Below, one piece after another: positions 63,215 through 64,000 of a stretch of 64,000 nt of DNA. Position 1 is the first letter of the stretch. Each line of letters begins with the position of its first letter. The notes beneath the pieces are model-generated. The model had not been told where the DNA came from and did no database searches. It worked only from the letters and a program-made list of their open reading frames with translations. The position numbers and the translations under genes were made by a program. This DNA is from an uncultured Chlamydiae bacterium (GTDB taxonomy: Bacteria; Chlamydiota; Chlamydiia; Chlamydiales; Parachlamydiaceae): the NCBI GenBank assembly GCA_963754655.1, contig CAVWGN010000001.1, positions 1,152,001-1,216,000 of the forward strand, in the 5' to 3' direction.

Positions 63215-63668
63215 CTCAAGTAATATATTTTGAAGACTTTTAATTCATTATTTACCAACCTAGTACTATTAGATAAATTGCACCCAGAATCGTTAGCGAT
63301 TTTAGCTATGTAAAAATCTGTTTTTTAGCCCGCGTTTTCTCATCCTAGCTTAGGGAATCACTCTGAGCTAGGGTGTATGATTTAGCAGCAACTGAGAAAA
63401 TTGTTTAGATTATTTTTTATTTTTTCTCTAGAAAGTGCACAACTAAAACATTATTTTGCGGACCTTTAACCCATTATTTATATAACTATTGATTTAATAA
63501 ATTAATACTAAGTGAAATAGATAAAATTTATTTTTAATTTTTATGATTTGTAAATCTAAAAAATTAAATTTAATTCATTTTTTATTAATTTATGTTGGAA
63601 TTAAATTAGTCATAATTTAATATAATTTTCTTTGTAAATTGCGTATGAAATTTTAAGAGAGAATTTGC

Positions 63669-64000
63669 ATGAATATAGGAATTTCAAATCATTATACTGA
63701 ACAAGTCAGCATACCATCTATTAATAGTGCGGAAATACATTTTGTAGAAAAATCCAAGAAAAAATGGACCGATGCTGAAAATGCGCAATTGAGCAATTAT
63801 ATAAAAGAATTTGGAGAGAACTGGAAGAGAATTGCGGAGAAGATACCTGGTAAAACTCATCAGCAATGTAAGAATCATTGGATACGTGTATTGAACCCTA
63901 CTATTAAGCATGGAAAATGGACAGAAGAGGAAGATGAGCAATTGAAAAACCTTGTGGATCAACATGGAAAAAAGTGGGCAGAAATAGCTAAAGAGATGTC
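63669..64000 (+). CDS. Second Myb-repeat protein, paralogue of 59906-62383 (runs off the window end)
   Basis: MNIGISNHYTEQVSIPSINSAEIHFVEKSKKKWTDAENAQLSNYIKEFGENWKRIAEKIPGKTHQQCKNHWIRVLNPTIKHGKWTEEEDEQLKNLVDQHGKKWAEIAKEM...; same pre-ATG sequence (aaattttaagagaga.tttg). Confidence 0.92.
   Translation, partial: MNIGISNHYTEQVSIPSINSAEIHFVEKSKKKWTDAENAQLSNYIKEFGENWKRIAEKIPGKTHQQCKNHWIRVLNPTIKHGKWTEEEDEQLKNLVDQHGKKWAEIAKEM

Follow-up and report, generated by a model that had tools for sequence, protein, structure and literature searches.

A complete second gene of a eukaryote-like Myb family with an amplified R2-like repeat in a chlamydia-like bacterium

Gene A2 and its family

The stretch of DNA analysed here (the window) comprises 64,000 nucleotides (nt) of contig CAVWGN010000001.1 of an uncultured Chlamydiae bacterium of the Parachlamydiaceae and corresponds to G000:C1:1152001-1216000. 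At its right-hand end lies an open reading frame (ORF), termed A2, which starts with an ATG at position 63669 and encodes 110 amino acids up to position 64000, where it is cut by the end of the window. In the whole genome A2 is complete, encodes 547 amino acids (G000:C1:1215669-1217312) and would end at window position 65312. A2 is the complete second gene of a genome-specific, eukaryote-derived Myb family of the R1R2R3 type, in which the R2-like repeat is amplified to 1-11 copies. A preliminary description of the window had noted an ORF running off the end, with its leader region taken from position 63645, 24 nt ahead of the ATG, and this has been borne out. The same description had named two outcomes that would have refuted its reading, a pseudogene ending shortly past the window and an identical repeat string. 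Both are excluded, the former by the intact ORF, the latter by the repeat string of A2, which differs from that of every paralogue.

The neighbouring gene A1 encodes 825 amino acids and begins with MNIGISNHYPEQVSVPFINDAE, the corresponding N-terminus of A2 being MNIGISNHYTEQVSIPSINSAE. Over residues 1-97 the two proteins are 78% identical (E = 3e-50), and the common leader pattern proposed earlier is present in the first 22 residues exactly as written. A shared sequence in front of the ATG had likewise been claimed. The 200 nt upstream of A2 are indeed 68-83% identical to those of the paralogues A1, A3-A7 and B1, whereas shuffled sequences average 54% and reach 60% at most. Helix 3 of the first Myb repeat changes from TPKQCKYHW in A1 to THQQCKNHW in A2, as had been described. 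The A2 protein carries six internal repeats, and an in-frame deletion of 24 residues has left its C-terminal cap (C-cap) without helix 3 and has removed the first half of the adjoining basic motif.

Members of the family were sought in all six frames of the genome. The family consists of 13 genes and one frameshifted remnant at 2447 kb (14 loci), which are placed at six separate loci of the genome. Seven genes, A1-A7, form a tandem array (C1:1211906-1228922) with A2 in second position; B1-B3 are three single genes, and a second, more divergent tandem trio, genes C1-C3, is found at about 1355-1360 kb. With seven tandem genes, six dispersed ones and a remnant, the earlier proposal of a gene family rather than a one-off stands. 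All members share a common plan, composed of a disordered leader, an R1-like cap (N-cap), 1-11 R2-like repeats of 50-52 amino acids, an R3-like C-cap, a basic motif resembling a nuclear localization signal (NLS) and an acidic tail. There is one internal repeat in B3, C1, C2 and C3, three in B1, four in B2 and A5, six in A2 and A3, seven in A4 and A7, and eleven plus a partial unit in A1. Judged from this series, the simplest history would be a three-repeat Myb gene in which the middle repeat was amplified.

The leader, about 30 residues long, reads MNIGISN.Y in groups A and B and MNVGSL in group C. A hidden Markov model (HMM) of the leader matches the 13 frames that bear an N-terminus as well as the remnant, confirming that the paralogues share it; the best of the six other frames listed reaches E = 0.31. 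Interpretation of the leader as a module common to other effectors was rejected, since within the genome its HMM matches the family only. No hydrophobic segment of the Sec type was seen by inspection of the N-terminus. The basic motif consists of KK, about 15 residues and KKFKK, and the sequence EERPLKKFKK is kept in the ten frames of groups A and B that extend this far, B1, B2 and B3 differing by one or two substitutions; the motif is recognisable in C2 and C3. The tail behind it comprises about 100 residues with a net charge of -4 to -15, and Gln, Pro, Leu or Ser account for one third to one half of its residues. Within the genome the tail profile, like that of the leader, gave no match outside the family, and against 1.84 billion representative proteins it retrieved at E < 1e-30 proteins of its own genome only. 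Two weak outside matches of the tail profile turned out to be unrelated repetitive proteins, and a search of the ESM Atlas with the tail gave no usable match.

Residues 84-104 of A1 (window 60155-60217) form a partial Myb unit of 21 residues, helix 1 only, which is inserted between the N-cap and the first full repeat and represents an in-frame scar of unequal recombination. Repeats r8 and r9 of A1 share 98.7% of their DNA sequence and are the product of a very recent internal duplication. Across the family the DNA identity between repeats averages 84% (range 74-99%), and for 18 of the 45 repeats the nearest relative lies in the same gene, which reveals recent duplication within genes alongside an older divergence. 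Nine ORFs of 306-825 amino acids are still open. Elsewhere, A3 carries a frameshift in the tail, and the tail of A4 is truncated by a stop ahead of its terminal helix. An IS607-like element divides A6 into 1223640-1224215 and 1226014-1226685, and gene C1 is separated from its tail by an element of the IS4/5 family (G000:C1:1355897-1356648; DUF4096 and DDE_Tnp_1 in two frames).

The tandem array fills an interval of 18.5 kb between yidC and a Ser/Thr kinase gene. Two related genomes, G002 and G003, display the order dnaA, yidC, Ser/Thr kinase with a yidC-kinase gap of 2.8 kb and 1.2 kb, respectively, and YidC is 76-80% identical between these species. When the 110 residues of A2 were used as query, no match was obtained in three out of three genomes of the same genus (96-99% complete), and weak matches confined to the Myb part were obtained in three of a further 21 genomes from the taxonomic family. 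The G+C (GC) content of the family genes, 35-40%, is close to that of the genome (38.8%), and third-position GC is genome-like. Synteny, genome-like GC and bacterial insertion sequences (IS) inside the genes together show that these are resident bacterial genes and not host contamination. The Myb family is a recent, lineage-specific gain.

Myb fold and variation of helix 3

Assignment to the Myb fold is based on sequence and on a predicted structure. Pfam Myb_DNA-binding (PF00249) recognises two repeats on the 110-residue stub of A2 (E = 2.6e-25) and 13 stretches on A1 (E = 6.8e-212), and a gap-poor HMMER alignment connects the proteins to R1R2R3 of c-Myb (1h88_C, E = 1.3e-31), the internal repeats pairing with R2 and R3. 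An AlphaFold2 model of A2, calculated from an alignment of 34 sequences, reached a mean predicted local distance difference test score (pLDDT) of 77.9. Residues 30-420 have a pLDDT mostly of about 90 or above, with two stretches at 80-84 and one block of ten residues at 71, and fold into seven three-helix repeats followed by the shortened C-cap, of which two helices are left. The leader (residues 1-27) and residues 420-509 of the tail fall below 50, and a helix at residues 506-537 is weakly supported. Superposition of the model on DNA-bound c-Myb R1R2R3 with Foldseek yielded a template modelling (TM) score of 0.78 on the target and a root-mean-square deviation (r.m.s.d.) of 2.9 Å over 148 columns. 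Further structural matches are SNAPC4 and the R2R3 Mybs tvMyb2/3 of Trichomonas and WER of plants; c-Myb, tvMyb2/3 and WER are matched at TM 0.73-0.88 on the target. The best solved sequence matches are SNAPC4 and c-Myb. All three conserved aromatic positions are Trp in the caps, and the third is Tyr in the internal repeats (45 out of 45); an alignment reveals one repeat with Tyr for the third Trp in SNAPC4 as well. Membership in the R1R2R3-type Myb fold stands, and the canonical site specificity of c-Myb is not to be assumed.

Among 5.8 billion protein clusters searched, all hits above 45% identity are encoded on the same 3.12-Mb contig. The best hits from other sources, none of them more than 40% identical, are Myb proteins of eukaryotes, namely 'Myb-like protein A' of a mucoromycete, 4R and 3R MYBs of plants and a Myb of an amoebozoan, together with multi-Myb proteins encoded on short contigs from metagenomes. 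Of 401 genomes sampled across the phylum, 17 contain PF00249; within the same taxonomic family the count is 10 of 45, and among control genomes it is 0 of 14. Myb-domain proteins are therefore a recurring, patchy theme in the taxonomic family. The other chlamydial Myb proteins examined possess 1-5 irregular repeats and unrelated ends.

The preliminary description had suggested tabulating the helix-3 residues of each paralogue. An alignment was made of 45 internal repeats of A1-A7 and B1; it leaves out the caps, the partial unit of 21 residues in A1 and two internal repeats of A6, namely the last in its N-terminal piece and the first in its C-terminal piece. W1, W20, C35 and Y39 are invariant. 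The columns of highest entropy are 33, 41, 36, 50 and 37, and the paralogues differ most at columns aligned with base-contact residues of c-Myb. Columns 33, 36, 37, 40 and 41, which form one face of helix 3, rank 1, 3, 5, 9 and 2 out of 51, and their mean entropy is 2.33 bits compared with 0.66 for the rest (permutation p = 1e-5). According to the HMMER alignment with 1h88_C, along which the c-Myb numbering was counted, these columns pair with K128/N179, R131/K182, E132/N183, H135/N186 and N136/S187. PMC3203581 names K128, E132, K182, N183, N136, N179, N186 and S187 as the residues by which c-Myb recognises bases, so that eight of the residues paired with the face columns belong to this set. 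The five-residue strings are distinct in 42 of the 45 repeats, and no two paralogues have the same order of strings.

Substitution rates separate the two parts of the repeat. Over all repeat pairs, the ratio of nonsynonymous to synonymous changes (pN/pS) is 1.15 for the face and 0.42 elsewhere. Rates were also counted on 22 disjoint nearest-neighbour pairs of present-day repeats, and here pN/pS amounts to 1.93 for the face and 0.44 elsewhere (Fisher p = 3e-5), with amino acid differences in 56 of 102 face cells and in 169 of 1011 other cells. The scaffold lies below the neutral expectation (p = 5e-10). It is under purifying selection, and the contact face is unconstrained or diversifying. For comparison, pN/pS is 0.52 in the C-cap and 0.72 in the tail.

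Proposed role and rival explanations

Four TLC nucleotide transporters, a hallmark of obligate intracellular bacteria, are encoded in the genome, and the organism is chlamydia-like and obligately intracellular. The genome encodes a type III secretion system, with two secretins and a cluster in the order sctU, sctV, an unknown ORF and a CesT-type chaperone, in which the single FHIPEP gene lies; a search for the HrpJ/CopN family gave no match in any genome, controls included, and is uninformative. With modest confidence, we lean towards a role of the family as nuclear DNA-binding effectors that would be delivered by the type III system and have paralogue-specific targets, resembling transcription activator-like effectors (TALEs) in architecture, not in fold. 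Through its disordered leader the protein could be exported by the type III system into a host cell, which is probably that of a protist; there the basic motif after the Myb array would bring it into the nucleus. The array would sit in the major groove of the DNA, and the five variable residues on the face of each recognition helix would set the sequence preference. Paralogues that differ in repeat number and helix-3 strings would accordingly bind different sites. The acidic, Gln/Pro/Leu-rich tail with its conserved terminal helix may recruit host factors, or the bound protein may block host Myb sites.

Several observations weigh against such a role. The leader occurs on proteins of the family only, so that nothing marks it as a secretion module; its conservation may merely reflect common descent, and its pN/pS of 0.49 equals that of the adjoining N-cap (0.56). 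For the contact face, pN/pS does not exceed 1 significantly (binomial p = 0.13), relaxed constraint accounts for it as well as diversifying selection does, and in ordinary Myb families, too, variability is highest at the base-contact positions. Counted from the repeat consensus, the net charge per repeat is near zero, and the full K128/E132 or K182/N183 set of c-Myb is found in none of the repeats; DNA binding is therefore not to be taken for granted. Moreover, chlamydiae use eukaryote-like chromatin proteins, which resemble histone H1, on their own nucleoid. Five of the 14 loci are damaged, which together with the C-cap deletion of A2 fits a partly decaying family. No RNA run was among the sequencing runs listed for the A2 stretch.

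The chromatin proteins just mentioned bring into view a role inside the bacterium, in which a DNA-binding domain borrowed from eukaryotes would serve bacterial ends and the Myb proteins would target the chromosome of the bacterium itself, either as nucleoid-associated proteins or as developmental regulators. A leader private to the family, a conserved upstream region of its own with a bacterial-type promoter candidate, and GC and third-position GC values like those of the genome would suit this role. The NLS-like motif and the disordered acidic tail, however, have no obvious bacterial function, and the lack of a match in all three genomes of the same genus, with other orphans at the locus in G002 and G003, would be unusual for a core regulator; copy and repeat number vary besides, and insertion sequences break members freely. 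We therefore judge this explanation unlikely. About the same small probability is assigned to proteins that are delivered to the host and do not read DNA sequence, serving instead as a protein or chromatin scaffold or as a decoy for the partners of host Mybs, with the variable face as a protein-contact surface. Several Myb repeats of SNAPC4, the best solved sequence match, bind other subunits and not DNA, and the near-zero net charge and the loss of the canonical c-Myb contacts point in the same direction. Yet helix 3 has a basic character, the scaffold is conserved at the residues that it shares with DNA-binding R2/R3 repeats, three consecutive repeats of the model superpose on c-Myb in its DNA-bound form, and the variation follows an i, i+3, i+4, i+7, i+8 face, which is the base-contact face of c-Myb.

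The broken loci, the in-frame deletions in A2 and A1, the insertion sequences in and beside members and a contact face that evolves at about the neutral rate might also be expected of a mostly functionless relic, left over from the chance acquisition of a eukaryotic Myb gene that unequal recombination then amplified and that is now breaking down. Decay alone would be difficult to reconcile with the purifying selection on the scaffold, with pN/pS values of 0.49-0.72 in leader, caps and tail, with nine long ORFs remaining open in an AT-rich genome and with the conserved upstream regions, and a relic is thus very unlikely. Misjoining of eukaryotic host DNA into the contig has next to no probability. 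It would explain why the closest relatives from other genomes come from eukaryotes without exception, but the genes lie within a 3.12-Mb contig, are flanked by yidC and a kinase gene, a pair whose synteny extends to two relatives, match the genome in GC content, consist of uninterrupted, intron-free frames, contain bacterial insertion sequences and occur at six separate loci. Contamination by host DNA was rejected on synteny, GC content and insertion sequences.

Comparison with known Myb proteins places the family next to the three-repeat type of eukaryotes (c-Myb, B-Myb, plant MYB3R), with which it shares the order R1-R2-R3, repeats of 50-52 amino acids, regularly spaced aromatic residues, a conserved QC in helix 3 and 36-45% identity over the DNA-binding domain. 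A basic motif and an acidic region following the DNA-binding domain are a further feature in common with factors of the c-Myb type. In contrast to these, the genes described here are bacterial, contain up to 11 copies of the R2-like unit, replace the third Trp of that unit by Tyr throughout, do not keep the c-Myb contacts and encode a leader and a tail without homologues. More than three repeats are found in SNAPC4 and the plant 4R-MYBs (4.5 repeats), a repeat with Tyr for the third Trp is found in SNAPC4, and the match to SNAPC4 (7xur_A) reaches E = 4.8e-35 for the whole protein and 1.4e-32 for residues 30-185. Unlike SNAPC4, however, the family differs in repeat number and matches it in the Myb region only, the non-Myb parts having no counterpart, and superposition of the whole array on SNAPC4 is poor (r.m.s.d. 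16-28 Å). Multi-Myb proteins of protists and fungi in metagenomes (P0013, P0011, P0015) and 'Myb-like protein A' of a mucoromycete (P0012), which are the top non-self hits, have 6-10 repeats, some of them uniform, and vary at the same helix-3 positions. They differ by an identity of at most 40%, by Trp at the third aromatic position and by the absence of a common leader or tail. The largest array here counts 13 repeats, compared with a maximum of 10 among 127 non-self hits counted. Long Myb arrays as such are no peculiarity of this family, given the eukaryotic Myb proteins with 6-10 repeats among the hits.

The likeness to TALEs put forward in the preliminary description holds for the layout and not for the repeat. 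TAL effectors of Xanthomonas and TALE-likes (RipTALs, Bats) are bacterial proteins with an N-terminal region, tandem repeats of a DNA-binding type, a basic NLS-like motif and an acidic C-terminus, and they form multigene repertoires whose members vary in the number of repeats and at a few residues within each repeat. Leader, repeats, basic motif and acidic tail follow the same arrangement in the Myb family. In contrast, its repeats are three-helix Myb units of 51 amino acids with about 84% DNA identity and five variable positions, whereas the near-identical TALE repeats have about 34 amino acids (33-35) and two; each Myb repeat would probably cover about 3 base pairs (bp) instead of one. No TAL-effector family is among the Pfam families listed. 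A more far-reaching proposal would be a natural, modular Myb recognition system, in which each 51-residue repeat would recognise about 3 bp by means of its five variable positions in helix 3, arrays of 3-13 repeats would match long host sites, and a repertoire of designer-like activators or repressors would be injected into the protist host. Such a system would be an independent counterpart of TALEs and possibly a new programmable scaffold; we consider this unlikely.

Bacterial proteins known to reach the host nucleus and to recognise DNA there are, to our knowledge, very few, with TAL effectors as the sole family that has tandem repeats and a repertoire of paralogues. If secreted, the Myb proteins would represent a second solution alongside TAL effectors, derived from a horizontally captured eukaryotic Myb that was amplified within the gene and across the genome. 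If the proposed role is true, they would offer a direct handle on host transcription for the biology of chlamydiae and protists, and 45 natural helix-3 variants on one constant scaffold for protein engineers. Even if they are not secreted, the family is a clear, datable expansion of a eukaryotic transcription-factor domain in a bacterium at the dnaA/yidC locus. It resembles other eukaryotic-like proteins of intracellular bacteria in combining a eukaryote-type domain, an obligately intracellular carrier and a patchy distribution. 'Myb-like transcription factors' are stated to occur in endosymbiotic Clostridia, Legionella and Chlamydiota in a general sentence of PMC10579323, which was the only relevant item found. 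No description of Myb-array proteins in chlamydiae was found by full-text literature searches, where the supplement of PMC10579323 and two references cited there may list individual genes, and none of a uniform amplified array, of helix-3 variability or of a 14-locus family, nor of a uniform array with 13 repeats within a bacterial multigene family.

Features of the window and minor observations

Coordinates of A1, A2 and the elements upstream of and within A2 are compiled below.

Coordinates of the Myb genes and associated elements in the window
Feature	Position	Strand	Description
Paralogue A1	59906..62383	+	leader, N-cap, 21-residue partial unit, 11 internal repeats, C-cap, basic motif, acidic tail
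Upstream region duplicated with the gene	63469..63668	+	68-83% identity to upstream regions of paralogues
Candidate promoter	63595..63623	+	TTGGAA, 17 nt, TAATAT; proposed from alignment, 8 of 12 consensus positions
Possible ribosome-binding site	63655..63662	+	AAGAGAGA; purine-rich, 7-14 nt before the ATG
Paralogue A2, 5' part	63669..64000	+	110 of 547 codons; ORF continues beyond the window
Family-specific leader	63669..63764	+	A2 residues 1-32; basic run KSKKK at the end
N-cap Myb repeat	63765..63917	+	A2 residues 33-83; W-W-W; aligns with c-Myb R1; pLDDT 95-98
First of six internal R2-like repeats	63918..64000	+	beginning only (window end)

The candidate promoter is kept in A2-A6 and, with changes, in B1. 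A consensus promoter scan did not list it, the match at 8 of 12 positions being below the threshold of the scan. The purine-rich stretch in front of the ATG is kept throughout the family as AGAGAG or AAAGGA. One soil-metagenome run contains a tenth of the sequence words of A2. Its contigs on the gene are 59-175 nt long, 8 of 18 with at least 99% identity, and one piece of 151 nt is identical to the tail; these pieces are too fragmentary for naming a strain or habitat.

Within the A1-A2 spacer (window 62611-63214) a perfect inverted repeat of 281 nt with a centre of 42 nt can be observed, which explains the mirror-image 'ORFs' of 65 amino acids at 62694-62891 and 62934-63131. Each arm contains a hairpin similar to Acido-Lenti-1 (36.4 bits, gathering score 37), and TAGCCCTGGGCTA, which includes the palindrome GCCCWGGGC, is present in both arms (window 62704-62716 and 63109-63121). 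The inverted repeat lengthens this spacer by about 0.9 kb over the other spacers.

The interval occupied by the Myb array holds other genes in the two relatives. Orphan ORFs of 411 and 173 amino acids are located between yidC and the kinase gene of G002 (L060:12607-15379), and one of 188 amino acids in G003 (L061:13981-15212). Neither of the G002 ORFs has a Pfam match, and a known domain in the 411-residue protein was rejected for want of Pfam support. Between dnaA and yidC, window positions 52929-56475 include a gene for a 522-residue protein with a eukaryotic RhoGEF (DH) domain (E = 1.6e-8) and, beside it, one for a proline-rich coiled-coil protein of 496 residues without a Pfam match. Since dnaA and yidC are adjacent in G002 and G003, this pair constitutes a second lineage-specific insertion of effector-like genes. 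A hot spot for lineage-specific genes appears to exist beside dnaA and yidC.

Immediately upstream of the sctU-sctV cluster lies a gene for an F-box-like protein (E = 3.5e-10; L062:2857-3672, G000:C1:2040856-2041671). In the same taxonomic family, genome G209 has unrelated small Myb proteins of its own (L048, G209:C3:73500-83500), as do the loci L049 and L050 (G387:C4). Among these small Mybs are the products of six genes clustered in tandem in G209, with 122-264 amino acids, and a protein of 338 amino acids with four repeats; KRQK or KKRK motifs are found in many of them.

The IS607-like element in A6 (G000:C1:1224216-1226013) comprises the serine recombinase TnpA and a fragment of OrfB_IS605. 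A pair of reading frames nearly identical to the IS4/5 element of gene C1 adjoins B1 at 1631510-1632261. The tail of C2 (G000:C1:1357583-1358785) contains the short peptide YPPI repeated in tandem 4-5 times, a feature that the neighbouring C3 does not have.

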